This document shows positions 1 to 47,508 of a stretch of 47,508 nucleotides of DNA, in pieces. This DNA comes from a virus, in IMG/VR virus record IMGVR_UViG_3300028048_000198, positions 1-47,508 of that record; one strand, 5' to 3'. The position numbers and the translations under genes were made by a program. Below the pieces are notes generated by a model. The model saw only the letters and a list, made by a program, of their open reading frames with translations. It made no database searches and was not told the origin of the DNA. Numbering within the stretch: the first letter of the stretch is position 1; the number at the start of each line of letters is the position of its first letter.

Positions 1-127
1 ATAGATAATTTACAAATAGTGTCAAGAAGTGAACATACTAAATTACATCAAGATTATTTGAAAAAGTGTCAATATAAGATATAGTCTGAACTTATGTGAA
101 AGCATAAGAGAACTAATGGAAACGATT
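1..127. repeat. Exact duplicate of window end 47382..47508 (overlap of a circular or circularly permuted assembly)
   Basis: Bases 1-127 (atagataatttacaaatagtg...ggaaacgatt) are identical to the last 127 bases. The copy lies inside the HNH ORF/intron, so features wrap across the window ends. Confidence 0.95.
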
Positions 128-144
128 AGTTCGTAACATATTTG
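1..144 (+). mobile_element. 3' terminal part of the group I intron that begins at 46725 (1..127 duplicated copy, 128..144 unique); terminal G at 144
   Basis: After the HNH stop there are hairpins cttatg-tgaaag-cataag and ctaat-ggaaacg-attag, then ...catatttG|gaa. G144 directly precedes in-frame exon 2. Confidence 0.75.
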
Positions 145-951
145 GAAAGTCAAATGGAATTGAGAGTACAAGCATACTATACTATTATTCATGCTAGTGA
201 ACCAGATTTGTTAATGTGTAGAGCTTATATGCCTTATAACTGTTATAATGAGAATTCTACTAAATTTGATTATAAAAATCCTGAGCATATAAAAAATTAT
301 GCTAAACACCAATGGTATGAATGTATGACTGGAAAAGAATGGATACCTACAGACTTACATAGTGCAACTACTAAAAATGCATTCCCAGAATTAGAAGAAG
401 GTACTCCAGAATTCAAACATCATAGAAAACTAGGAAAGAGAGCAAACTTCTTGAAAGTTTATCAAGGTGGAGTTGATGCATTAATGAACGCACTAGATGT
501 TTCTAGAGATGTAGCAGAGAAATTAGACAAAGCCTTTTATAAATCTTTTCCTAAAATTAGAGAGTATCAAGAATGGGTTACAGAACATTTAAGTCAATAT
601 GGTTATGTAGAAAACTTATATGGTAGAAGATACTATATGGATGATAGTAGGTTTTACTACAGAGCTTGTAATTACTTAATACAAGGTACTTGTGCAGATA
701 TGGTTAAGACTTTTGAGATAAAAGTTTGGGAGTATTTAACAAAGAATAATTTGAAGTCTAGACTAGTTTTACCAATACATGATGAGTTAATGGTAGCTGT
801 AGCTAATGATGAGATGTTTGTTATAGAGGAAGTTAAAAGAATAATGGAAGATGTTACTGATGTTATTAGGTCTATACCTATGATAAGTGAACCTGAAATG
901 AGTACTACGAATTGGGCTTGTAAGGAGGAGTATGTTATAAATGAAGGATAG
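145..951 (+). CDS. Family-A DNA polymerase, exon 2 (rest of motif A, motifs B and C)
   Basis: ESQMELRVQAYY completes motif A (DYSQIELRVLAH-like) when joined to exon 1 ...LAFCD. RKLGKRANFLKVYQGG matches motif B and LPIHDELMV matches motif C. The TTG start at 142 in the track is the last 3 nt of the intron. Confidence 0.9.
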   Translation, partial: ESQMELRVQAYYTIIHASEPDLLMCRAYMPYNCYNENSTKFDYKNPEHIKNYAKHQWYECMTGKEWIPTDLHSATTKNAFPELEEGTPEFKHHRKLGKRANFLKVYQGGVDALMNALDVSRDVAEKLDKAFYKSFPKIREYQEWVTEHLSQYGYVENLYGRRYYMDDSRFYYRACNYLIQGTCADMVKTFEIKVWEYLTKNNLKSRLVLPIHDELMVAVANDEMFVIEEVKRIMEDVTDVIRSIPMISEPEMSTTNWACKEEYVINEG

Positions 952-1087
952 AGTTAAAGAAATAAAACAATTAATATATTTAAAATCAGAGTTGATAAGA
1001 CAAACTAAGAAAGAGATAAAACAATTACAACAAGAAAAACAAACTATTGAAGGTGAGAAAAGATTACAAAAGAAGAAGGTGAAATAA
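941..1087 (+). CDS. Hypothetical 48-aa Lys/Gln-rich coiled-coil protein (below track cutoff)
   Basis: taaggaggag at 921-930, ATG at 941; the stop overlaps the next ATG (TAATG). Confidence 0.45.
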   Translation: MKDRVKEIKQLIYLKSELIRQTKKEIKQLQQEKQTIEGEKRLQKKKVK

Positions 1088-1170
1088 TGATAGGTAAAAT
1101 AATATTTGGTGTATTAATATTGCTAGTAGGATTTATAATATGGTGTATGTTAAAAGTAGGTGATGATTAA
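1087..1170 (+). CDS. Hypothetical 27-aa single-TM micropeptide
   Basis: MIGKIIFGVLILLVGFIIWCMLKVGDD; start and stop are both coupled to neighbouring ORFs. Confidence 0.35.
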   Translation: MIGKIIFGVLILLVGFIIWCMLKVGDD

Positions 1171-1421
1171 TGGGATTTGATTATGAAAAAGTAGAAAAAG
1201 CATGGTTTAAACCAAAAAAGACTGTATTAGAAATGACAGAGAATAGAAAATTATTATTTAGTGGAAGATCAGTTATAATAGATGAATTTAGGTCGTGGTG
1301 TACAGAACATGAAGTTGCTTTTTCACCAAATAATCTACTTGTTTTTCTACAATTAAATGAACTATTAGACATAGACAGAATATTTGACAAAATACAAGAA
1401 ATTAAAAAGGAGTTGGTATAA
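1170..1421 (+). CDS. Hypothetical protein (83 aa)
   Basis: ORF in the co-directional, tightly packed gene array; no motif recognised. Confidence 0.65.
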   Translation: MGFDYEKVEKAWFKPKKTVLEMTENRKLLFSGRSVIIDEFRSWCTEHEVAFSPNNLLVFLQLNELLDIDRIFDKIQEIKKELV

Positions 1422-1727
1422 ATGAACATTTATTTAGATTATTTATTAAAGAACTTTGGTGGAGCACATTTAGCAGGAGCTAAAATTGCTGCTGAGCTTA
1501 TTGAAAAATATGATATTACTGATATAAATAATGCATACCATAAATATGCAGATGATCATAATGATAAATATGCTAATGTAGAAAGAGCTATTAGACACTA
1601 TATTAGTGTAATTGGAACTATGAGAGATGTTGAAAAAATTCTAGGGTGTAAATGTTTTAATAATAGAAACTTTACAAATAAAGAATTTCTAGCAATAGTT
1701 AAAATAAGAGCTGAGGAGGTAAAATAG
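1422..1727 (+). CDS. Stand-alone Spo0A C-terminal (effector, DNA-binding) domain homologue without receiver domain
   Basis: YANVERAIRHYISVIG matches Spo0A ASRVERAIRHAIEVAW. NFTNKEFLAIVKIRAEE matches KPTNSEFIAMVADKLRLE. GGAHLAGAKIAAELI matches GVPAHIKGYLYLREAI. SD aaggag lies 8 nt upstream. Confidence 0.75.
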   Translation: MNIYLDYLLKNFGGAHLAGAKIAAELIEKYDITDINNAYHKYADDHNDKYANVERAIRHYISVIGTMRDVEKILGCKCFNNRNFTNKEFLAIVKIRAEEVK

Positions 1728-1985
1728 ATGGGGCTATTAGCAGGACTAGAAGCAGACAGAAGATACACAGAAGAATTAGAGAACAAAATAGAGTACTATC
1801 AAAGAAAAACACAAAGACAACAAAAACAAATAGATGATATGAAAAACAAATTTGATGAACTTATGTATAATTCAGAAAAAATCGATAAAGCAACAGCACT
1901 ATACTTAAAAGAATTATCTGAAAAAGGAAAAGTAGATGATCTTGCTTGTAAGATGTTTAATGTTTTGGAGGGAAATATAAAATGA
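1728..1985 (+). CDS. Hypothetical coiled-coil protein (85 aa)
   Basis: SD gaggagg upstream; heptad-like charged sequence. Confidence 0.65.
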   Translation: MGLLAGLEADRRYTEELENKIEYYQRKTQRQQKQIDDMKNKFDELMYNSEKIDKATALYLKELSEKGKVDDLACKMFNVLEGNIK

Positions 1986-2200
1986 AAATAGTTTTTGATT
2001 ATATGGATAACTCCTATGAAATAACAAATATAACATATCATGCGTATGATGGAAAGAGAAGGACTACAGTTATAGGATACAAGGATGTTTATAATGATGA
2101 AAGTACATGGATAATTAGGAACTTTCATTTAACAATAGATGAAGCGATAAATGAAGTAAAAAGGAATATAAGAGAGAGGAATATAAAAAATGATAAATAA
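1982..2200 (+). CDS. Hypothetical protein (72 aa)
   Basis: ATGA overlap with the upstream stop; SD ggaggg. Confidence 0.6.
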   Translation: MKIVFDYMDNSYEITNITYHAYDGKRRTTVIGYKDVYNDESTWIIRNFHLTIDEAINEVKRNIRERNIKNDK

Positions 2201-2354
2201 GAAAAGAAAGTTAATATTTGAATTTGAAGATAAAGGAACAGGAATTATGGTTAAGACTAAAGTTAAAGGTAAACTAAAACTAGCTGATATTCTTTGTGCT
2301 AAACAAGTAATAGATAATAAGATAAAAGACAATGGCAAAGACAAAAGAAAGTAA
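2190..2354 (+). CDS. Hypothetical 54-aa basic protein (below track cutoff)
   Basis: ATG at 2190, open to TAA at 2352-2354; overlaps both neighbours. Confidence 0.35.
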   Translation: MINKKRKLIFEFEDKGTGIMVKTKVKGKLKLADILCAKQVIDNKIKDNGKDKRK

Positions 2355-2697
2355 ACTTGAGCAAGACATAGAGAGATTTATGCAAAGAAAAGGTATTTGG
2401 CAACTTGCTAGATACCAAGCTCAGTCTAACCAAAATGGTTTACCTGATAGAATGTATTTATATAAAGGTTACCTTCTAGGTCTAGAGCTTAAGACTGATG
2501 AAGGTAAACCTACAAAATTACAACTAAAGAAACTTGATGCAATAAATAAAAATGGTGGAATTGGATTAATTGTTAGAAATGTTGAAACAGTTGAGAAGTT
2601 GATAAGATATATAGATGCTTATGAACCTATAACTGAGGACTGTAGTGCTTATATATTAAGTCAAATGAAGGAATGGATGGAAGAAAATGGGTATTAA
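2332..2697 (+). CDS. VRR-NUC domain nuclease (PD-(D/E)xK, Holliday-junction-resolvase-like)
   Basis: NGLPDRMYLYKGYLLGLELKTDEGKPTKLQ fits the VRR-NUC G-x-PD ... E-x-K ... Q signature. Confidence 0.8.
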   Translation: MAKTKESKLEQDIERFMQRKGIWQLARYQAQSNQNGLPDRMYLYKGYLLGLELKTDEGKPTKLQLKKLDAINKNGGIGLIVRNVETVEKLIRYIDAYEPITEDCSAYILSQMKEWMEENGY

Positions 2698-3007
2698 AGA
2701 TTATATGAATAAATTGTTATCTGACCTAGATAAAGAAGGATTTGTATTACAATACTATGAAGCATATTCCACTTCTAGTTGTTATATAAAACTAGATTAT
2801 GGGGAATGTAACTCAATAAGAATAGTAGATCACAAAGGTAAAGATAAATATCCTTATAGATTTAATCTAATGATAGGTTTAGATAAGTCTTATGCAACTA
2901 ATGGTAGAAATTATTATAGTGTTGATGACTATGATAAAATGATTTCTGATATTAAAGAGTTTAAAGAAAAACAACTTGAAAAATATGGTTTTAAATACTA
3001 CGAATAG
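2687..3007 (+). CDS. Hypothetical protein (106 aa)
   Basis: ORF overlapping the upstream stop; no motif recognised. Confidence 0.6.
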   Translation: MGIKDYMNKLLSDLDKEGFVLQYYEAYSTSSCYIKLDYGECNSIRIVDHKGKDKYPYRFNLMIGLDKSYATNGRNYYSVDDYDKMISDIKEFKEKQLEKYGFKYYE

Positions 3008-3012
3008 AAAGG

Positions 3013-3038
3013 GTTTTTGGGCAAAAGCAAAAACTTTT
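3013..3038 (+). terminator. Weak AT-rich hairpin plus T-run
   Basis: gtttttg-ggcaaaag-caaaaac followed by tttt. Confidence 0.3.
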
Positions 3039-3045
3039 AATGACT

Positions 3046-3080
3046 AATTTTCAACTTTTTAGAAAAGTGTATGTTATAAT
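3046..3080 (+). promoter_or_regulatory. Extended -10 promoter candidate upstream of the exonuclease gene
   Basis: TGtTATAAT at 3072-3080; the -35 is poor (caactt). Confidence 0.35.
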
Positions 3081-3102
3081 GTAGTCAAGAAGGAGAGATA
3101 AT

Positions 3103-3987
3103 ATGAAAGAAAGATTTGATGTAATTGCTAGTAGTTTGTCTAGTTATATGGGGGTAGGATTTAATACAATTCAAGAACAACTAGATTATGACTTAGGAAA
3201 TGAAGAAAGAGTAGTTGATGATGAAGCACAAGACAGAATGAACTTGGGTATCGCTCTAGAAGATGGTTGCTTAAATTATTTTGAACAAAAAATGGGAATA
3301 CTTATTGATGAAAGAAACTCTGAATACAAGTATGCTTTCAATGATCAGCTTAAGTGTAAAAGAGATGGTAGAACATTTATAGACGGAGTTGAAACAGGAG
3401 TTGAAAACAAATACTCTAATTCATCTAGTGAATGTTTTACTGATAGTATTGGTTATGAAATACAATGTCAAGCATATATGGCTGCTTGGGGATTAGACCA
3501 ATGGCTATTATGTGGTATGTGGCAAGGTAAACCAGTATGTAAATTAATTAAAAGAAATGAAGAAATAATAAAAGATATTGAAGTTATAGTTAATTCTGTA
3601 GTTGAAATAATGATGGGTATCAGAAGTATTGATGATTATCCTTGGGATGTTGTAGAAAAGTATTCTAAACAAAAACAACTAAAAGTATTGACTGATGATG
3701 ACTTAGAGGAGTATGATAAACAACTGTTGAATAGTGTTGGTAAGTTAAAAGCACAAAAGAAAGCTATTGAAGATAAATTAAAAGAACTTGAGGATTATGC
3801 TAAACTACACTATGAAGATAGTAAATGGGAAGATGCTGACTTTAAATACTCTATATCTACATCTGCTGGAAGGTCTACATTTGATAAGAATACATTTAGT
3901 ATTGAAAACCCTACAATAGATATTATGAAGTATTATAAAGAAGGTACGCCTTTTAGAACAATAAGATGTACAGCAAAGAAGAAATAA
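3103..3987 (+). CDS. YqaJ/lambda-Exo-like PD-(D/E)xK recombination exonuclease with C-terminal coiled coil
   Basis: LGIALEDG..., KRDGRTF...GVENKYS (D...E-x-K) and YEIQCQAYMAAWGLDQWLL fit the YqaJ pattern. SD aaggagag. Confidence 0.7.
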   Translation: MKERFDVIASSLSSYMGVGFNTIQEQLDYDLGNEERVVDDEAQDRMNLGIALEDGCLNYFEQKMGILIDERNSEYKYAFNDQLKCKRDGRTFIDGVETGVENKYSNSSSECFTDSIGYEIQCQAYMAAWGLDQWLLCGMWQGKPVCKLIKRNEEIIKDIEVIVNSVVEIMMGIRSIDDYPWDVVEKYSKQKQLKVLTDDDLEEYDKQLLNSVGKLKAQKKAIEDKLKELEDYAKLHYEDSKWEDADFKYSISTSAGRSTFDKNTFSIENPTIDIMKYYKEGTPFRTIRCTAKKK

Positions 3988-3988
3988 T

Positions 3989-4186
3989 ATGGAAGATAAA
4001 AAGGTGTTATCTACAAAATCTACAGTAGATTTAATAAAAGAGTTGGCAGTACTTGATCATGAAATAGAATTAAAAATAATGAAGTATAACTTATACAGCA
4101 TGGAGCTACACAAAAGATTTGGTGATAGTGTTATAGGAGATGTTTATGAACCTAAGATACTAGTTAAAAAGAAAGAAGGAGAGTAG
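3989..4186 (+). CDS. Hypothetical protein (65 aa)
   Basis: ORF packed 1 nt after the upstream stop. Confidence 0.55.
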   Translation: MEDKKVLSTKSTVDLIKELAVLDHEIELKIMKYNLYSMELHKRFGDSVIGDVYEPKILVKKKEGE

Positions 4187-4187
4187 T

Positions 4188-4469
4188 ATGAAAAATAGAT
4201 TTGATTTTATCAAAGAAAGTAAAGATATAGTAAGAAATTATGCTTATAAACATTTAGATGTGACTGATAATATAGAAAAGCAAGATTTTGATGTATATGT
4301 AGTTTGGTATGCTTATGAACTAGGAAATCAAAAAGCAATGATAAGCACCTCATTACTTGATGGAATGTACTATGAAGTTACATACAATATAAATAAAAAT
4401 GAAATATATCTTGATGCATACAAGAAGTTTGAGAATAAAGTTATAAATTTAAAGAAAGAAGGAGAATGA
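4188..4469 (+). CDS. Hypothetical protein (93 aa)
   Basis: SD gaaggagag 5 nt upstream. Confidence 0.65.
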   Translation: MKNRFDFIKESKDIVRNYAYKHLDVTDNIEKQDFDVYVVWYAYELGNQKAMISTSLLDGMYYEVTYNINKNEIYLDAYKKFENKVINLKKEGE

Positions 4470-4471
4470 TT

Positions 4472-4924
4472 ATGAAAACAATAATTGAAGAAATAAGAGA
4501 ATATATTGCTTGTCCTCAATTTGGGGATGACCATTATGGTAAATGGGGAGCTTTAAGTAGAATTCAGAGATCTAAAATAAAAGAACTATGTGATTATGCA
4601 AATGCACTAGAAGGTATGGTTGATGAATACAATAAGTTAAACGATGATGCTATAGATGCAACTGAATATTTTTCAAAAATTGTATTAGGAATTTGGAATA
4701 ATGACAATGAAGATTATAAAGTTAGATTTGTAAAAGAATATAAGGAATTAAAAGAAAGATATGGAAAGTTACATAAAATGATAGTGAAAGCAGAAGCTGG
4801 AACTTTAGATTTTGAACTTGACTGTCCTTTAGATTTACTAAAACAACAAGCTAAAGCTATGGGAGAATACCTACATATACTTGAAATAAGAGCTGAAATA
4901 GAAAAGGTAAATATAAATGAGTAA
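4472..4924 (+). CDS. Hypothetical protein with a helical C-terminal domain (YKELKERYGKLHKMI...LLKQQAKAMGEYLHILEIR)
   Basis: ATG at 4472 is better spaced from the SD ggaga than the track start at 4466. The C-terminal half resembles a family common in Firmicute and gut phages. Confidence 0.6.
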   Translation: MKTIIEEIREYIACPQFGDDHYGKWGALSRIQRSKIKELCDYANALEGMVDEYNKLNDDAIDATEYFSKIVLGIWNNDNEDYKVRFVKEYKELKERYGKLHKMIVKAEAGTLDFELDCPLDLLKQQAKAMGEYLHILEIRAEIEKVNINE

Positions 4925-5150
4925 AGAAGAATATGCACAATTATATTCCTTATTAGGTAAACTAAAATACGAAATAGGTATTACATTTAGACAGAGGATA
5001 AATTGTCATAATCTTATGAATGATAACTTACAAAAGATAAATGAAGTATTAACTATGCCTATATTTTTAAGTGATGATGATAAGTGTACTATTACACCAT
5101 TAGATGATTACTTAAAAGCAGAAGATTTTGTATTAAACGAAAAAGACTAG
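4917..5150 (+). CDS. Hypothetical protein (77 aa), last gene of the rightward arm
   Basis: ATGA overlap with the upstream stop. Confidence 0.55.
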   Translation: MSKEEYAQLYSLLGKLKYEIGITFRQRINCHNLMNDNLQKINEVLTMPIFLSDDDKCTITPLDDYLKAEDFVLNEKD

Positions 5151-5167
5151 AACAATCTAGTCTTTTT
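5140..5167. terminator. Bidirectional rho-independent terminator between the convergent arms
   Basis: aaaaagactaga-acaa-tctagtcttttt: a perfect 12-bp stem flanked by A/T runs, overlapping both stop codons. Confidence 0.85.
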
Positions 5168-12207: not shown

Positions 12208-14820
12208 CTAAGCACTTTCAGCATTACCTAAATCTTCACAGTATGCTGTAATTTTTAGCCATCTATCTCCAACTTGACCTTTTCTCCATAGTTTTATAGG
12301 CATTACAGCACCAGTAGAATTATTAACGACTGTATCACAAACAATCTGTCTATAATGTGTTCCTGTCTCTGTAACATCTACTGTCACTTGCCAATCTGTG
12401 GTATCAGTATCTCCTTTTGTAATTTTAATAGATCTATCACCAGCACTATTGCTTTCAAATGAAGCAACAACTACTATTCTAAACATACCATTTTTATTTA
12501 GATTAAAGCCTATCAACTGATTGTTATCGTTTTTAAGACCTCTGACAGTCTCTCCATGTCTATAAATACCTTCTAATATCATATTTTCATAGGTTGTTCC
12601 AACAGGGTTATTTAACGAATTATTGTTAATTCTCATAAACATTTTACCCTCTTGGTATTCAACTCCATAAATGACATTAAGCAAATCTTTTCTTATTTGT
12701 TTATTTAATAACTGTTTCTGTTTAGATATTTCACCATATATATCGGCTCTTTCAGCATTAACAGTTTCTTTTTTTACATTAAAATTTACAGTTATTTTTC
12801 TATCTGTCGTACCATTGTCATCAATATTTCTATTAACCTTGTTTTCTTTAATATTTAAAGAAGCAGAGCCTCCACCATCTCCACGCCATGCTCTTACACA
12901 GCCTTTAGATTGCATAATAGCTAAGGCTTGTTCATTAGTTAAACCTGCATTATTATCTGTTCTACCGTCACAAGCAAGTATTATAATATCTCCATTTTCT
13001 TTTATACCGAAATCCATACGAGGACTTTCAGTTGTCCAATTAGGAACATCAGTGTGTTCTTCTAGTTCTCCATTATTCATGTACCTATAAAATACTAAAA
13101 ATGCATTTTTTACACCTGCATCTAACATTTGTTGTGCAGTTGTTTGATTTGCTTGAAATTCTAATAATTGTCTATCTTCTGTAAAACCTATATACACATT
13201 ATCATCTCTATATGTTATATCATTAGGAGCTTGGTTCAATATTTGTCCGTTTCCTATAACAATACCTTGTTTCCAAGTACCACCCTCATTTTGATAGGTT
13301 AAACCTGCATTTGTAGTTAATGTAGTTTTATTAGATATAGCGTATTCATTAGGTGTTTTATTGTCATCTTTATCAACATAAACATTTATCTGATTATTAC
13401 CATTATCGTATTTAGGGATGGTTGCTATATAACAATCTGTATGGTCATGTCTTTCTTCTACATAAGTTATTTCATCATAATAATTGCTATTATTAATCTG
13501 ATCACTTAACTCATATTTTGTGTTATATATTATGTCATTTGTTTCTTCTTTTGAATAAAAATCTCTATTAGTAATTGCGTATACCATATCTAAAGTAGGT
13601 AAAGCATTTGAACTTGTAATTTCAAAATTTGTTTCTTCGTTGTATAACAATATATTTCTTATAGCATTTAATTGATTTAATAAGGTGATATTAGTTATTT
13701 CTTCAATTACTGGTTCTTTTAAAACACAATACACAGTAACATTATTATTAGAAAGCCATGTTTTAAAATCAGCTAATACTGTATGAGTACCATCATAAAT
13801 ATATAACCCACTAACATCTGGATTTCTATAAGAAATACCTACAACATTATTCCATGTGTTTGTAGCACTAACTGCTTTAAAATGACTAGAAAGTATTGCA
13901 CTTACTGTAGAAGTTCCTGTTGTGTCTAAAATATTGCTAAGACCTATTTGAAAACGTTTACCATTTGAAGAATTTGTAATTTGCCAATTTTCTGTACCAT
14001 TAAAAATAAATTTTTTAATCTTTTTATATTTAAACCATTTATTGTTTTGGTAGTATATATAATCTTTATAAGTTCCTACCTTACAAAGTTCTATATCTCC
14101 TAGTGATAACAAAAATGTATTAGATAAGGTGTTGTCAGCATTTTTAATAGTTAAATTAACATCTCCCTTAACAACATACACGCTAACTGGATTAGTAGGA
14201 GATGGCGTAGTGGCTTGGCTAGAATTACCAAATATTTTATTTACTCTACTATAACCAGTTGTATTTTCTAGTTGTGTTTCGTTTTGTACCGTTCCTGTAT
14301 TGGTCATTTGTAAATTGTTTTCAGATAGAAAATCACTATCATTTTGTAAGTCGCTTATCTTTGTAGGAATATCATTAATATTAGCTTTTGCAGATAATGC
14401 TTCTTCTAAATCAGGAGTTATTTCTTCTATTACGTTACTAGCAGTATCACTAACGATTTGTTGTTGGTCTGCTTCAGTCCAATAGTCTACTCCCCTAACA
14501 GGAGCACTATATCCTGCAAATAGTGCATCCATATAGGCTTTTGCTTGTTGAGATGAAGGTATTTTGTTATCATCAGATTGTAGTTCTTCATCAATATATC
14601 TAGAAAGAGTTGCTCCATCTAATTTCTTAGCATTTCCAACAATTTTTCCACCATTTAATAATCTTTGAATATCGTAATAGTTTTCATTAATAGCAGTTTT
14701 TAATATACCTAACATCTGATTAATATCAGTATGCTGGTAAGTCTGACCATCTTTATAAGTAGGGTTTAAGTCTGTTTCACCTATTCTATTATATAGTTCA
14801 TTTTCTTCCATAATATTCAC
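12208..14820 (-). CDS. Tail fibre/spike (870 aa) with an internal phosphodiester-glycosidase (NAGPA/DUF2233-like) domain
   Basis: Fibre-type N-terminus (LNGGKIVGNAKKLDGA, ISDLQNDSDF). ILACDGRTDNNAGLTNEQALAIMQSKGCVRAWRGDGGGSASL matches the DGR...G.t..e.a......G...A.nLDGGGS signature. Confidence 0.7.
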   Translation of the reverse strand: MNIMEENELYNRIGETDLNPTYKDGQTYQHTDINQMLGILKTAINENYYDIQRLLNGGKIVGNAKKLDGATLSRYIDEELQSDDNKIPSSQQAKAYMDALFAGYSAPVRGVDYWTEADQQQIVSDTASNVIEEITPDLEEALSAKANINDIPTKISDLQNDSDFLSENNLQMTNTGTVQNETQLENTTGYSRVNKIFGNSSQATTPSPTNPVSVYVVKGDVNLTIKNADNTLSNTFLLSLGDIELCKVGTYKDYIYYQNNKWFKYKKIKKFIFNGTENWQITNSSNGKRFQIGLSNILDTTGTSTVSAILSSHFKAVSATNTWNNVVGISYRNPDVSGLYIYDGTHTVLADFKTWLSNNNVTVYCVLKEPVIEEITNITLLNQLNAIRNILLYNEETNFEITSSNALPTLDMVYAITNRDFYSKEETNDIIYNTKYELSDQINNSNYYDEITYVEERHDHTDCYIATIPKYDNGNNQINVYVDKDDNKTPNEYAISNKTTLTTNAGLTYQNEGGTWKQGIVIGNGQILNQAPNDITYRDDNVYIGFTEDRQLLEFQANQTTAQQMLDAGVKNAFLVFYRYMNNGELEEHTDVPNWTTESPRMDFGIKENGDIIILACDGRTDNNAGLTNEQALAIMQSKGCVRAWRGDGGGSASLNIKENKVNRNIDDNGTTDRKITVNFNVKKETVNAERADIYGEISKQKQLLNKQIRKDLLNVIYGVEYQEGKMFMRINNNSLNNPVGTTYENMILEGIYRHGETVRGLKNDNNQLIGFNLNKNGMFRIVVVASFESNSAGDRSIKITKGDTDTTDWQVTVDVTETGTHYRQIVCDTVVNNSTGAVMPIKLWRKGQVGDRWLKITAYCEDLGNAESA

Positions 14821-30465: not shown

Positions 30466-30485
30466 TTCCTCAACTCCCTTTTGAT

Positions 30486-30514
30486 ATTATAGAGGGAGGT
30501 GGATTTTATTTCAA
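30486..30514 (-). promoter_or_regulatory. Consensus sigma-A promoter for the HTH regulator (leftward early promoter)
   Basis: Minus strand TTGAAA-17-TATAAT, 20 nt upstream of the ATG; SD gggag. Confidence 0.7.
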
Positions 30515-30563
30515 GATTTTTTGGTAGATATTAAAAATTTTTAGTAGAGAGATTTTTTGTAGG
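30515..30563. repeat. Three copies of ATTTTTnGTAG(A/G) upstream of the leftward promoter
   Basis: gattttttggtaga, aaatttttagtaga and gattttttgtagg; the GTAG cores are at 30524, 30544 and 30559. Confidence 0.7.
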
Positions 30564-30570
30564 TTTATGA

Positions 30571-30630
30571 ACACCACAACACACACGAAGTCTTTGTGTA
30601 CAAAACACACCATTCAAACCCCACCCCCCA
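30571..30630. other. C/A-rich compositional island in an otherwise AT-rich spacer
   Basis: acaccacaacacacacgaag...caaaacacaccattcaaaccccacccccca. Confidence 0.8.
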
Positions 30631-30712
30631 TGTTTTTATATTAATAACTTTTTTAACTTTTTTATAATTAATTAATACGAACAGTTGTTTGTTTATTCAA
30701 AGTTTATAAAAA

Positions 30713-30748
30713 TGTTATTAATATTATTAATGTTATTAATGTTATAGG
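30713..30748. repeat. Four tandem 9-mers TGTTATTAA (iteron-like)
   Basis: tgttattaa tattattaa tgttattaa tgttatagg. The related GTTAT(T/C)(A/G)A motif recurs in both orientations between 30640 and 31290. Confidence 0.8.
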
Positions 30749-31010
30749 TCAATTATAAAAAAGTTATTAATAAAACATTGATTTTTCCCCATATCTTTGA
30801 TAACTTTCACAAAATAGGTTTTTTATAGTCAATATATAAGTATATTAATACTACTATCTAAACTATTTATATATAATATATAAAAAACACTTTCACGCGT
30901 AAATAAGTCTATTTCGGGAGATTTTAAGGTTTTATTGATAACTTTTTTATTTTTAGATAAAAGGTTAATTATAGTAAATAATAAAAATTATAAAAATTTT
31001 AAAAAAGTTA

Positions 31011-31039
31011 TTGACATTATTTTTCGTTTATGATAAGAT
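31011..31039 (+). promoter_or_regulatory. Early promoter P1 (sigma-A, extended -10)
   Basis: TTGACA-17-TGaTAAGAT preceded by the A-tract attttaaaaaagttat. Confidence 0.7.
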
Positions 31040-31126
31040 TATATTGTCAACAGGACAGAGCACCTAGAAACAAACAACCTAGAAAAAACAAAAATATTAA
31101 AAATTATATAAATTTTAAAAAAGTTA

Positions 31127-31155
31127 TTGACTTTATAAAAATTATATGTTATCAT
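31127..31155 (+). promoter_or_regulatory. Early promoter P2 (sigma-A, extended -10)
   Basis: TTGACT-17-TGtTATCAT with the same upstream block aattttaaaaaagttat. Confidence 0.7.
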
Positions 31156-31283
31156 TAATATGTCAACGAGTTGGTGGCGTGTGTATACGGACTAGTTTAA
31201 TCCTACCAAGGAACTAAGGAAAGCACGAAATTTAAAATTGACAAAATAAAATAATATAAATTTTAAAAAAGTTAAAAAAGTTA

Positions 31284-31312
31284 TTGACATTATAAAATTT
31301 ATATGATACAAT
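31284..31312 (+). promoter_or_regulatory. Early promoter P3 (sigma-A, extended -10)
   Basis: TTGACA-17-TGaTACAAT with the same upstream block aattttaaaaaagtta(aaaaagtta)t. Confidence 0.75.
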
Positions 31313-31319
31313 GTATACA

Positions 31320-31724
31320 ACAACAAACGAAGAGCCAAAAAAAATTAATCGGTTAAACTACACCATAAAAGACAGTAGACAGAGTGACTTCTGTCTAGAT
31401 ATAAAGATTGATATTTGACAAGTACTATAATGTGAAAATAAGCAAACGACATTTAGTCAAGTCGCCGATGCTTGTGAGTAATATATGTAGAGTATAGAAA
31501 CGGGACTTAATAGGAATAACTTTGTATTAGGGCTATGACAGTGATAGAACGCCCTAGGATAAAACCTTTTAAGTATTGCCGTAAACTTTGTAAGCAAGCA
31601 CGGTTTATCAGTGGAAACTGATAAATCTAGGAGCATGAAACGGATCTAATTGGGTGAAGTGTTTCTAGATTTGTTAGTTTCCAAGACTAACAAGTCCATA
31701 GAATAGGTATAGGAGGGATAAAAT
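31320..31724 (+). promoter_or_regulatory. About 400-nt structured, ORF-free 5' leader of the early operon (candidate cis-regulatory or processed RNA)
   Basis: GC is visibly higher than in the flanks. Serial hairpins at 31376-31397, 31528-31556, 31578-31604, 31605-31624, 31623-31672 (12 bp) and 31674-31692, then SD aggaggg. Confidence 0.45.
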
Positions 31725-32144
31725 ATGGATAAAAAATTGGAAAATATTAACAAATTATTATATGAAACAAAATTTAATTACAGTAGAAGTGAAAGCGATA
31801 TTGACTTATTCACACCTCAACACGTGAAATACAACTGTGAGTTGTCAAATAAAAATGGGGAATATTTATTTACTTATCAATGCAATCCAAAGTTTGTAAA
31901 AATAACAAAAGAAAGTGTGTTGGCTTGTGTATTAAGTGATGCTAGATGCTACCAAGATTGTGTAATAGGTAGCGAGGATGACACTATACAAGAATTCGCT
32001 AATATGTTTGGTTATGATAATATAAAAGAGTGTCTTAAAGCCTATAAAGGTTGTAAAAAAGCAAGTGAAAAACTTAATAAAATGTACACACAAGATGAAC
32101 AAGAAGCATTATATGACTATTTTGTAGAAAAAGGAGAAATTTAA
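31725..32144 (+). CDS. First early protein (139 aa, 7 Cys)
   Basis: SD aggaggg 8 nt upstream; no motif recognised. Confidence 0.7.
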   Translation: MDKKLENINKLLYETKFNYSRSESDIDLFTPQHVKYNCELSNKNGEYLFTYQCNPKFVKITKESVLACVLSDARCYQDCVIGSEDDTIQEFANMFGYDNIKECLKAYKGCKKASEKLNKMYTQDEQEALYDYFVEKGEI

Positions 32145-32146
32145 TT

Positions 32147-32341
32147 ATGAAGAATAAAATGGAAAACTATAAGGAAATAATAAAAGACTTAGAAAAAAGG
32201 GGTATTACTTTATTGGATTTAGATATATGTAATGAAATAGAGTGCCAACAAGATAAAGAACTTACAGAACAACAACTAGAATTAATTTATAATACAACAG
32301 AAAGAGCATATTTGAAGAGTTCAGAAATTACAATAGAATAA
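32147..32341 (+). CDS. Hypothetical acidic early protein (64 aa)
   Basis: SD aaaggaga. Confidence 0.6.
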   Translation: MKNKMENYKEIIKDLEKRGITLLDLDICNEIECQQDKELTEQQLELIYNTTERAYLKSSEITIE

Positions 32342-32437
32342 CTAGTTAGATATTGTATTAAAAATGTAGATAAAATTTATGACATGGACGTTTATGACAT
32401 AATAGACGAGTGTAGTTTTTATTAGGAGGAGTAAATT

Positions 32438-32749
32438 ATGAAAGTAGAACAATTTTTAAATAGAAATCAATTCCATTTATATGGAGAATTTAATGGAGAA
32501 GTACATCATGTTTTGCAAAGTTATGATAGTAAAGTGGTAGAAATAATTAACAAAGACGGTTATCAATTAGTAACATTAGGTAGAGATTGGGATTATTCGA
32601 CAACAACAGCAAAACACGTTTATGCTTTCTTAAAAGAATACTTAGACTATGGTTTTCAGTTTAGACCAGATAAGGTTAAAAATAAAAGAAAATACGTTCA
32701 AAGTTTAATAGACGACCATACTTTTGGTTATGATAAAGATATGTATTAG
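32438..32749 (+). CDS. Hypothetical early protein (103 aa; SYDS.V...DYSTTTAKHV motif)
   Basis: SD taggaggag. Confidence 0.65.
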   Translation: MKVEQFLNRNQFHLYGEFNGEVHHVLQSYDSKVVEIINKDGYQLVTLGRDWDYSTTTAKHVYAFLKEYLDYGFQFRPDKVKNKRKYVQSLIDDHTFGYDKDMY

Positions 32750-44833: not shown

Positions 44834-45330
44834 TGGTATTAGATGAAAAGGAGCTAGAAAAATATAAAACTCATCCTAGAGTTTTAGAAATAAGATTTAT
44901 TTTAATGTTTGATATGTTTGAGAAGGAACTTGGTTACCAACAAGCAACTAAGTCCTTCCAGGCTTTATGTAGTGCGTTTAATTGTAATATGACACTATTA
45001 CAAGCTATTATAAATAGGAGATTTGATATATTAAGAAAGTCAAAAACTAATTTTAGAAGATGGCGACAAGAAGTTGTATTTTCATCCTATGTTTATGGGG
45101 AAAGTATTTATAGAGTTGCTAAATATTACTTTAGAATTAAGCCAGAAGGTATATATGCACAAAAGGAACTCTATGATGTTAACAGATTTTTAACTAATGA
45201 ATGGCTAGATAAACTTGATGATAGTACAATATTGTGTGGAGAATATGCTTATAAAAATGAAGTTGTTAGATTTATGGAAATTATAGATAACATGGCTCTA
45301 ATACTAAAGAAGTGGAAAGGTGATGCTTAA
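44833..45330 (+). CDS. Hypothetical protein (165 aa) between the primase-helicase and polymerase genes
   Basis: TAATG coupling on both sides. Confidence 0.6.
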   Translation: MVLDEKELEKYKTHPRVLEIRFILMFDMFEKELGYQQATKSFQALCSAFNCNMTLLQAIINRRFDILRKSKTNFRRWRQEVVFSSYVYGESIYRVAKYYFRIKPEGIYAQKELYDVNRFLTNEWLDKLDDSTILCGEYAYKNEVVRFMEIIDNMALILKKWKGDA

Positions 45331-46724
45331 TGTTCTTATATCAGAAGTATAAATATAACTATAAACATTTAGATGTACATAATGATGCTGACATATCTTA
45401 TTTACAAGATTTAATACATAAAGCAGATAATGTACAACCTAATTATTTATATTACGATACTGAAACTGATGGATTACATATTATAACATCTAAACCATTC
45501 TTAGTATCATTTGGTTTTAAAAAAGATGATGTAAAAGAAGTTATAACTATGGATTATGATAAGGATATAATGAATTCATTTTGGAAAACAATATCTATAC
45601 AAAAGAATTTGAACAATAATCCAAATTATATAGGTGTAGGAGCACACAATGCTAAATATGATTATCACATGATGGAAAATGGGGGCAGTCCTATTCCAGA
45701 AAATATAGACTTGTTTGATAGTATTACAGTTGCTAGACTTACTGAATATGTTGATGAACACGCAAGTATGAGCCTAGAAACACTTGGTGGTAAATATGTT
45801 GATGAAGAAGCTAAGTTTGCTGGTAAAATTATTAAAGATATTATTAAAAAACTTAATGCTGAAAGAAGAAAACAACTTAGAGAAGATATTATGAACGCAT
45901 TTCCAGATGATGGATTTTTCACTATAACTAAGAGTGGTAAAAAGAAAGCAACAGGTAAACTATCTAAACTTATTGAGAACTATGATAAAACTAGAACACA
46001 GTTCTTAAACGATGATGATCCTTACTTCAAGTTTATTGATGAACACTATAGACCTGCTAGTTATAAAGATGTATATGAAAAAGAACCAGAATTAATGAGA
46101 AGTTATGCTGCTGATGATATTGTTATAGGTATAGAATATCTAGAAAAGGCTATGCCTACATTGTTAAAAGTTGATAAAGACTTAACCGTAACAAAAAGAG
46201 AAGGAAAACTTATTAGGGCTGTTGCTTGGATGGAAGATACAGGACTTAAAGTTGATGTAGATTATGTATTAAATTGTAGAAAGAATATGATAGCTTATAG
46301 AGATTTATTATACTTTGAACTACAAATGTACACAGGCGAAGAGTTCTCAGTAGGACAACATGAATTTATAAAGAAGTTATTATTAGCTAAATATAAAATA
46401 AAAACTGATAAAGCAGATGAAAAAGCACTAAAATATATTAGAGAACATTCTGATAATGAAGAAGTTAAAGATATTTGTTCTAATATACTAGAATTAAGAA
46501 CACTTGATAAATGGATTTCTACTTATGTTGACGGCAAACTTAATGCTGTTGTGAATGGTAGAATATATACAGATATAAATAATAATGGAGCTGTATCTGG
46601 TAGAGTTAGTTGTGATATGCAACAACAACCTAAGGAAGCACTATTTGATAGAGATGGTAATGAGTTATTCCACCCTAGAAGAATGTTTGTTTGTGATGAT
46701 GGTTTCTGTTTAGCATTTTGCGAT
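45330..46724 (+). CDS. Family-A DNA polymerase, exon 1 (3'-5' exonuclease domain and N-terminal part of the polymerase domain up to the motif-A Asp)
   Basis: Exo I is YYDTETDGL, Exo II is NAKYDYHMM and Exo III is YAADD. RRMFVCDDGFCLAFCD matches Taq IRRAFIAEEGWLLVALD. The in-frame stop 3 nt later belongs to the intron. Confidence 0.9.
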
Positions 46725-47508
46725 AAATGATTGTCGCAGTAAAACTCTGTGAATTGCTGGAAACCCCTTAGAGCTTTTAGTACCAAAGTGTAAAAATCTA
46801 AAAGATTGGGCAATCAGCAGCCAAGCCTAGAAATAGGAAGGTTCAACGACTATCGAAAGGATAACGAACCGAGTAGAGTAGGTTTCAAGTGAAACCGAAG
46901 TGCAGAGATATTGACACGAAGTTCCATTTGTGATACCATATAAAAGGTGATAGAAATGGAAGAATATATAAAAAATAATTTTAAAAAATTAACAAAATCT
47001 GAAATGGCTAAAAATCTTGGAGTGTCTTATAATAAAGTAGACTGGTTATGTAGAAAATTAGGACTAAAACATTACAAGTCAGTAAAATATAGTGATTATG
47101 AAATAGAATTTATAAGACATAATTATCCAACTTATGGATCTAAATTTTGTGCAGAAGCACTAAATAGAAGTGAAAATGCCATAAATAAGAAAATAAAGAA
47201 GATGAATTTACAAATAAATTGGAAACACTATTATATAAATACTAATGGTTATCTTGTAAATTGTGAAGATAGAAATAAACCCTATCTAGTTCATAGAAAA
47301 ATTATGGAAGAACATTTAGGTAGGAAACTAAAAGATAATGAAATAGTACACCATAAAGATATGAACAAACTTAATAACGATATAGATAATTTACAAATAG
47401 TGTCAAGAAGTGAACATACTAAATTACATCAAGATTATTTGAAAAAGTGTCAATATAAGATATAGTCTGAACTTATGTGAAAGCATAAGAGAACTAATGG
47501 AAACGATT
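46725..47508 (+). mobile_element. Group I intron (IA2-like), 5' part to the window end (continues 128..144); about 801 nt in total
   Basis: P1 pairs ttgcgaT (exon end) with Gtcgcag (46733-46739), giving a U.G pair at the splice site. The cores agccaagcc and gtgcagaga match the T4 td-type conserved segments. The GC-richer structured sequence at 46725-46945 contains no ORF. Confidence 0.8.
46956..47465 (+). CDS. Intron-encoded HNH homing endonuclease with N-terminal HTH DNA-binding modules
   Basis: HNH motif is VHHKDMNKLNNDIDNLQIVSRSEHTKLH. HTH-like segment is LTKSEMAKNLGVSYNKVDWLCRKLGL. ATG at 46956 lies 6 nt after aaaggtg. Confidence 0.85.
   Translation: MEEYIKNNFKKLTKSEMAKNLGVSYNKVDWLCRKLGLKHYKSVKYSDYEIEFIRHNYPTYGSKFCAEALNRSENAINKKIKKMNLQINWKHYYINTNGYLVNCEDRNKPYLVHRKIMEEHLGRKLKDNEIVHHKDMNKLNNDIDNLQIVSRSEHTKLHQDYLKKCQYKI

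Follow-up and report, generated by a model that had tools for sequence, protein, structure and literature searches.

The 5' leader of the early operon in the genome of an uncultivated gut phage (31320-31724, plus strand) is probably a functional cis-acting RNA of the plus strand. All coordinates refer to the window, which is the whole stretch of 47,508 nt that was analysed. The leader ends in a near-invariant element (31602-31694) whose segments can pair in two mutually exclusive ways, followed by a hairpin around the start codon of the first gene, and the gene itself lies in a slot whose content differs between relatives. Our preferred reading, which we hold tentatively and at somewhat less than even chances, is that of a 5' UTR that combines a processing and stability hairpin of the RNase III type with a hairpin tuning translation at the ribosome-binding site (RBS).

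The GC content of the whole window is 29.1%. Gene blocks diverge from one non-coding region of 1259 nt (30466-31724). The structural block (5166-30465) is on the minus strand and runs leftward, and the early/replication block is on the plus strand and runs rightward from 31725 to the window end and on through 1-4924, forming an early operon of about 20 kb. The non-coding region is the longest gap of its kind in the window, and coding density elsewhere was measured at 95.8%, close to the 95% given in the original prediction. Among cultured phages, Paenibacillus phage API480 comes nearest by large terminase (38% identity), and on this measure no close cultured relative appears to exist. In the GenBank phage collection, the leader region had no relative at the DNA level, and the first gene none at the protein level. 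No gene for a phage RNA polymerase was found in the window, so the early operon should be transcribed by the host polymerase. The gene for a family A DNA polymerase is present in two pieces (45330-46730, then 142-951). This split also shows the two ends of the window to be joined, and hence the genome to be complete and circularly permuted. A group I intron (Rfam RF00028, 50.8 bits, E 8e-12; partial 3' match at 1-108) and an ORF for an HNH endonuclease (46947-47465) also lie between the polymerase halves. Over the whole window, tetramers containing CpG were strongly depleted (GCGC 0, CCGG 0, CGCG 1 and GGCC 1, with about 21 expected for each; ACGT 12 and TCGA 11, with about 126 expected for each), and CTAG and TCTAGA were commoner than expected.

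Three promoters precede the leader on the plus strand, in line with the tandem early promoters originally noted. They share a -35 of TTGACA or TTGACT, a 17-nt spacer and an extended -10 (TGnTAnnnT): P1 at 31011-31039 (TTGACA, TG-n-TAAGAT), P2 at 31127-31155 (TTGACT, TG-n-TATCAT) and P3 at 31284-31312 (TTGACA, TG-n-TACAAT; 11 of 12 consensus positions). Transcription from P3 would start near 31319. Tandem promoters of the same type hold the equivalent position in relatives, whose contigs carry L numbers below. Upstream of the promoters, the promoter-upstream motif AAAAAAGTTATT(AA) recurs in several inverted copies within an AT-rich segment (30636-30775), with up to 20 nt at 95% complementarity; these copies could represent promoters for leftward transcription, UP-like elements or an origin-like region. 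The spacer between P2 and P3 was considered as a structured RNA and rejected (z -0.5, no better than shuffles); a 22-nt block within it, ATCCTACCAAGGAACTAAGGAA (31200-31221), is identical in L004. Transcripts from P1 and P2 should start with GUCAAC (31046-31051 and 31162-31167), which is complementary to a conserved UUGAC(AA) of the leader (31415-31421). A conserved motif, ATATTTGACAA (31411-31421, plus strand), is present in the window, L004, L144 and L003, and appears as TCATTGACAA or TCGTTGACAA in L142, L150 and L146. Similar sequences, TGTCAA(G/C), come after the promoters of L006 and L155 and form 5'-terminal hairpins there.

ORF, folding and GC analyses agree with the earlier description of about 400 nt after the strong promoters that hold no ORF preceded by a Shine-Dalgarno (SD) sequence. 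The short ORFs within 31320-31724 lack an SD, and indels of 1, 4, 5 and 24 nt disrupt them in L004 (81% identical). A leader peptide encoded at 31535-31621 was rejected, since that ORF lacks an SD at a suitable distance, is out of frame in L142 and is reduced to two codons in L004; an ORF on the minus strand was likewise dropped as it is not conserved. The leader has a GC content of 34.8%, against 20.4% upstream and 26.4% downstream, and thus does exceed its flanks as had been noted. The fold of the whole leader has an energy of -101.3 kcal/mol (z -5.4), equalled by none of 100 shuffles. Divided into parts, the signal was z -1.6 for 31319-31463, z -2.0 for 31464-31606 and z -6.2 for 31596-31735, and nearly all of the excess folding comes from the last 140 nt. 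The minimum free energy (MFE) structure has seven hairpin loops, in line with the 'at least six hairpins' first counted, but comparison with relatives supports only three or four of them. One hairpin, TAGACAGA/TTCTGTCTA at 31376-31397, carries substitutions in L004 and L144 that leave A.C mismatches in a plus-strand RNA but G.U pairs in a minus-strand one; read on the minus strand, with CTGTCTTTTA after it, it resembles a terminator, and no minus-strand promoter was found downstream of it.

The leader was searched against Rfam, as the original prediction had advised, and matched no family. At gathering scores in Rfam 15, the window and seven related loci gave no match in this region to riboswitches, T-box, 6S, pRNA, ROOL/GOLLD, ribozymes, EAR or other families. 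A permissive scan of 30600-31900 gave two matches at chance level only (E 0.8 and 1.9). The permissive mode can detect real RNAs in the window, having recovered the group I intron at 46679-46905, which the whole-window scan at gathering threshold had missed. A tRNA/tmRNA scan returned none.

Relatives were sought with exact DNA patterns and with two proteins, the terminase and the neighbouring HTH protein. The last of these added no further contigs, and two loose sequence patterns gave mostly random matches. At least 17 distinct copies of the approximately 95-nt 3' element (31602-31694 in the window) were found in related phage contigs, which came from sheep, cattle and deer rumen or gut metagenomes, with one contig binned as 'Bacilli bacterium RGIG4816'. 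The 17 homologs share a layout of 2-4 tandem promoters, a leader of 290-390 nt, the element, and then SD and ATG; 2-45 nt separate the end of the element from the SD of the first gene in all of them. The element is near invariant across these sequences, while the leader upstream of it varies and falls into several sequence groups that could not be aligned with one another. Absence of conservation and covariation had been named beforehand as grounds for giving up the idea of a structured leader; what was found instead is a 3' leader conserved in 17 contigs, with substitutions compatible with pairing. The element is present in single copy. A covariance-model search found none in the more distant relatives L005-L018, no similar hairpin was seen elsewhere in the genome (the long hairpin is the only non-AT-rich inverted repeat of its length in the window), and no complementary target for the element was found elsewhere in the phage genome.

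Two comparisons place the leader within its clade. L279, from a bioreactor metagenome, carries the same promoter type (2078-3000, minus strand) and no long leader, its last promoter leading directly into SD and ATG; the leader is thus an accessory module rather than a universal requirement. The distant relatives L007 and L018 (terminase about 73% identical) have one early promoter and ORF-free leaders of 590-630 nt (about 13680-14320 and 13580-14245, respectively, in reverse-complement coordinates). These leaders are unrelated in sequence, yet both end in a start-codon stem, and a long structured early leader can therefore be regarded as a trait of the clade.

The element consists of four plus-strand segments: segment 1, UUUAUCAGU (31604-31612); segment 2, ACUGAUAAA (31617-31625); segment 3, UUUGUUAGU (31670-31678); and segment 4, ACUAACAA (31686-31693). 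Either segments 1 and 2 and segments 3 and 4 pair, giving three hairpins, or segments 2 and 3 pair, giving a single 25-bp hairpin; in either fold, the sequence separating segments 2 and 3 makes up the upper part of hairpin H2. Hairpin H1 (31604-31625) consists of segments 1 and 2 around a GGAA loop, which is of GNRA type in nearly all homologs (GGAA, GAAA, GCAA or GGGAA). The long hairpin H2 (31612-31683) joins segments 2 and 3 with aaatctaggagc/gtttctagattt in a helix of 24-25 consecutive pairs (arms 31612-31636 and 31659-31683), topped by a variable apical stem-loop. Hairpin H3 (31671-31693) consists of segments 3 and 4, with UUGUUAGU and ACUAACAA around a UUCCAAG loop. The 12-bp helix originally pointed out, aaatctaggagc at 31623-31634 with gtttctagattt at 31661-31672, was found as described and is the centre of the 24-25-bp helix. 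An alternative pairing of its 3' arm had also been proposed; the partner named then, atcta at 31644-31648, gives 5 bp only and is incompletely kept in relatives, but stronger pairings that exclude the long helix exist elsewhere. These are TTTATCAGT (31604-31612) with ACTGATAAA (31617-31625) and TTGTTAGT (31671-31678) with ACTAACAA (31686-31693), both of which compete with the lower half of the long helix.

In an alignment of the 17 sequences, both alternative folds were about 99% paired. The nine pairs of H1 were paired in 100% of cases, and its three variable pairs change only to G.U or U.G, with G.U pairs gained in L277 and L281 (A-U to G.U in L281). H2 was paired in 99.5% of cells; two-sided changes occur at four pairs, every one in L003, including a lower H2 pair that changes from G-C to C-G. 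The apical stems of H2 vary and still pair (CAGA/UCUG, CUAG/CUAG, CCAG/UUGG, CUAU/AUAG). H3 was 98% paired, with U-A in 9 sequences and U.G in the other 8, and in L003 and L155 its register shifts with pairing kept. Each helix thus has at least one informative change (L281 for H1, the 9 versus 8 alternation for H3, L003 for lower H2), and all substitutions in the four segments are compatible with pairing, being transitions that keep a wobble with both possible partners or with the sole partner. As judged from the alignment, the covariation is consistent but thin, since the two-sided compensatory changes come from L003 only, and conservation is the main signal. The long form was the MFE structure in 13 of 13 homologs tested, by 3-6 kcal/mol. 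During transcription, sequential folding would be expected to produce the three-hairpin form first. Within the apical loop, GAUC (31643-31646 in the window), often as self-complementary AGAUCU, is kept in most homologs although the apex varies; it could serve a loop-loop or protein contact. GATC was also looked at as a methylation or restriction signal and dropped as uninformative, being only about 2-fold under-represented genome-wide.

That the element acts as RNA of the plus strand follows from its strand asymmetry, its G.U pairs and variants that break the DNA palindromes. The 3' 140 nt folds at -43.4 kcal/mol on the plus strand (z -6.2) and at -24.3 kcal/mol on the minus strand (z -3.0), and the covariance model gave plus-strand scores of 98-118 bits and minus-strand scores of 36-42. 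Several G.U pairs in the long helix are invariant. TTTATCGGT/ACTGGTAAA in L281 and ACTAGCAA in 8 of the 17 sequences disrupt the palindrome in DNA and keep wobble pairs in RNA. The same variants and the strong asymmetry in folding and model scores bear against a DNA element, whether a set of operator-like palindromes or a homology block for exchange of the first-gene cassette between co-infecting phages, in the manner of the PeSL cassettes of T4. Spacers of unequal length (4, about 32 and 7 nt) also speak against it. In its favour, H1, H3 and the base of H2 all read as palindromes with perfect Watson-Crick pairing in the window, and the element, itself conserved, bounds the variable slot on the left, with a conserved gene on the right, but on balance we consider a DNA element highly improbable. 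A role in recombination could coexist with one as RNA.

Downstream of the element, and missed in the original prediction, is the RBS hairpin (31694-31730, plus strand). GUCCAUA (31694-31700) pairs with UAUGGAU (31724-31730), so that the SD AGGAGGG (31711-31717) is located in a 23-nt loop and the start codon (31725-31727) within the stem; the pairing probability of the AUG in the window is 0.94. Among the 52 gene starts of the window, 31725 ranks second for the energy of the duplex between upstream sequence and start region. In the relatives, the sequence 5' of the conserved purine-rich RBS region complements the start codon and the next codons of each one's own first gene, through pairs such as UUUCAUA/UAUGAAA, GCUAAAUUUUAUA/UAUGAAAUAUAGC and GAUAC...CAUAU/AUAUG...GUAUC. 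The start-codon stem was the MFE structure in 10 of 10 homologs, and cognate duplexes had a mean energy of -8.37 kcal/mol, against -5.22 +/- 0.65 for permuted partners (p ~5e-5). It is also found in the distant L007, as AUAUACAU/AUGUAUAU, and in L018. The upstream anti-AUG sequence thus co-varies with each different first gene. This co-variation with seven unrelated coding starts is unusually clean comparative evidence of selection on start-codon pairing.

The first early gene (31725-32144, plus strand) encodes a protein of 139 aa (phrog_4273) with no known function. At least seven unrelated families of first genes, all without known function, follow the element in relatives. The variable slot spans 31725-32437, and its equivalents in L004, L019, L146, L147, L149 and L155 hold one or two wholly different genes. 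A conserved homolog of 32438-32749 follows one or two genes after the leader, so that both borders of the slot are conserved, the leader element on the left and this homolog on the right. The element marks a conserved expression platform ahead of a hypervariable slot. It offers a practical handle for finding the first-expressed genes of uncultivated phages, which are often counter-defence genes, and could also be used as a transferable 5' UTR module to express genes in Gram-positive bacteria of low GC content.

The relation between the two structures was modelled by forcing either H1 or the helix of segments 2 and 3 in 13 homologs. Accessibility of SD and AUG was unchanged; whichever fold was forced, the SD was 0.75-0.96 unpaired and the AUG 0.01-0.2 unpaired in 11 of the 13. 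The two-state element is thus not an expression platform for the RBS, and in these models the element and the RBS hairpin behave as independent devices. The result weighs on the possibility of a conformational timer or a factor-responsive switch, in which the co-transcriptional three-hairpin fold would be metastable, as in hok mRNA, and a phage or host protein or small ligand would bind one of the two folds and so set the timing or level of the early operon. Complementarity of segments 1:2, 2:3 and 3:4 is kept in all 17 homologs with wobble-compatible changes only, the conservation goes beyond the needs of pairing, H1 keeps its GNRA-type loops, and a further conserved domain with conserved loop sequences lies upstream, all of which would suit a switch. 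However, besides the unaffected SD and AUG, no terminator follows the element (H3 lacks a following U-run), no Rfam family matches, and no candidate binding protein was recognised among the neighbouring genes. A switch of this kind is rather unlikely, and the riboswitch-like attenuator suggested at the outset is not supported on the same three counts of terminator, start-site exposure and Rfam.

The upstream domain just mentioned is a probable middle domain, a long irregular hairpin on the plus strand (31464-31604) with a closing stem at 31464-31475/31594-31604, inner stems at 31500-31514/31565-31582 and an apical hairpin at 31521-31563, whose conserved loop CUAUGAcaGUGAUAGAAC lies at 31533-31550. 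L004 and L144 retain its pairs, some of them through compensatory swaps. The same architecture recurs in a second sequence group (L142, L146, L150), where the apical hairpin CUAU...GUGAUAG, bearing a 3' bulge of GAA(A/C), is conserved, as is UUAUUGCC on the 3' side. Between groups, the apical hairpin has different outer stems (GGGC/GCCC, CGAC/GUUCG, AGCC/GGCU). The fold is not significant alone (z -2.0), and MAFFT with RNAalifold across the two groups gave no joint structure, so that within-group folds alone were informative. With the two-state element and the RBS hairpin, the middle domain could form part of a previously undescribed multi-domain riboregulator of about 270 nt in a clade of uncultivated Bacilli phages. 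The two-state element would then be bound sequence-specifically by a host or phage factor, or would be a decoy itself, and the whole would act as an 'expression socket' for exchangeable, first-injected genes, probably of counter-defence, in phages of rumen Bacilli. We regard this larger reading as unlikely.

A stable RNA released from the leader to act in trans, as a decoy, an anti-defence RNA or a sponge for a host RNA-binding protein, is quite improbable. It would be the first RNA of the infection, produced by the strongest promoters; its several structured domains add up to about 270 nt, and its sequence is highly conserved; and it adjoins a hypervariable first-gene slot of a kind that may often hold counter-defence genes. 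Nevertheless, the leader resembles no Rfam family, shows no tandem repeats or units like CRISPR repeats, has no 3' terminator that would release a discrete RNA, and has no complementary target elsewhere in the phage.

The processing reading that we prefer may be set out as follows. The leader would be read on the plus strand by the host RNA polymerase from the three tandem promoters and would act in cis as RNA. During transcription the element would fold first as H1, upper H2 and H3 and then settle into the long hairpin of at least 25 bp, and this double-stranded form would be cut by host RNase III, trimming off leaders whose lengths differ with the promoter used. Once released, the two half-helices could refold separately: H1 would close the 3' end of the upstream fragment and H3 the 5' end of the mRNA, so that both cleavage products would carry a cap against exonucleases. 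The SD-like GGUGGAGUG, which is on the 3' side of the H2 apex in 12 of 17 homologs, would be near the new 5' end and could add ribosome-mediated protection. In the RBS hairpin, an SD open in the loop and an AUG held in a stem of 6-13 bp would set the translation rate of the gene in the slot. The structures and how well they are conserved, the strand, the mutual independence of the two devices and the variability of the slot are observed; cleavage by RNase III, refolding of the products and the effects on stability and translation are what we infer from them. Segments 1 and 4, which are otherwise puzzling, make sense if the cleavage products refold into H1 and H3.

Several features agree with this processing model, the best fit among the roles first suggested. 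The long hairpin would be an ideal substrate for a nuclease specific to double strands. RNase III sites call for at least 20 bp (about two turns) of largely uninterrupted double-stranded RNA; the helix here reaches at least 25 bp, is kept in the 17 homologs and is situated where such a site would be expected, after tandem promoters and directly before the RBS of the first cistron. In phage SP82, B. subtilis RNase III acts on the early mRNAs (PMC4838370), and a strong SD-like sequence stabilises downstream RNA (PMC7509114, citing Hue et al. 1995). Other features fit the model less well. The host is known only as a 'Bacilli' MAG. There is one such hairpin in the genome, the element is dispensable in the L279 background, and the two-sided compensatory changes in the long helix come from L003 alone. 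A processing site alone would also need neither the size of the leader nor its number of domains. Finally, the 3' arm GAGUGUUUCUAGAUUU is near invariant, which exceeds the sequence needs of the enzyme. Since RNase III needs no invariant sequence, and pairing does not explain the invariance either, the arm points to an additional sequence-specific partner, and may otherwise reflect a recombination border of the variable gene slot.

The position of the element also raised processive antitermination, by an RNA of the HK022 put or lambda nut type that would let the host polymerase read through termination signals in the 20-kb early operon, and which was among the roles first suggested. The element sits after the early promoters and before the first gene and is conserved whatever gene follows, and its adjacent hairpins and GNRA-type loop recall the put stem-loops and boxB. 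This suggestion was weakened by the analysis, and we now consider antitermination distinctly unlikely. No intrinsic terminator was found on the plus strand from 31300 via the window end to 5139, the first being at 5140-5167, no sequence resembling the boxA consensus was present in 31320-31724, no N-like or Q-like gene was recognised, and L279 runs the same operon without the element. Overall, the original interpretation stands in part: the leader is conserved and structured, and the alternative pairing that matters is another than the one named in it.

As a general kind, structured leaders of early mRNAs that carry a processing hairpin are well known. The specific motif appears to be undescribed, with no Rfam family and no cultured relative, and two of its traits are unusual, namely the triple-complementary two-state design and the anti-AUG sequence that co-evolves ahead of interchangeable genes.

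In the early region of T7, promoters A1, A2 and A3 are followed by the RNase III site R0.3 and then by gene 0.3. The window shares with it three strong tandem promoters of host type and a long hairpin just before the first expressed gene; the first gene of T7 is a counter-defence gene, and the first gene here lies in a hypervariable slot. T7 differs in having many RNase III sites, against one here, and the two show no sequence similarity; the host here is a Firmicute. Moreover, T7 sites have an internal loop and are cleaved on a single strand, whereas the site here is a near-perfect 25-bp helix predicted from sequence. In the lambda N leader, pL is followed by nutL, an RNase III-sensitive hairpin and the RBS of N, and processing alters translation of N. 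Both leaders are several hundred nt long, with a large hairpin immediately 5' of the RBS of the first gene. In contrast to lambda, neither boxA nor boxB nor an N-like protein was recognised here, although H1 does have a GNRA-type loop, and the modelled accessibility of the RBS is independent of the fold of the upstream element. The put sites of HK022 are likewise adjacent conserved stem-loops acting in cis just downstream of early promoters, but here no downstream intrinsic terminators were found, the element is larger and its favoured fold is a single long helix. With hok mRNA the element shares local co-transcriptional hairpins that compete with a more stable pairing, and overlapping constraints that lead to high conservation; unlike hok, it has no toxin gene, no antisense RNA and no modelled link between fold and RBS.

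To our knowledge, no triple-complementary two-state design is described for SP82. This Firmicute phage, whose RNase III sites with a polypurine 5' stabiliser downstream are cited in PMC4838370 (refs 19, 20) and PMC7509114 (Hue et al. 1995), also makes early transcripts from strong promoters and has a double-stranded hairpin followed by a strong SD-type purine tract, for which AAGGAGUGAU and the internal GGUGGAGUG are the equivalents here; SP82 has several sites, against one here. If the processing model is right, the leader would be a Firmicute-phage counterpart of the early-leader processing sites of T7 and lambda, with the new feature that both cleavage products would be able to refold into protective terminal hairpins.
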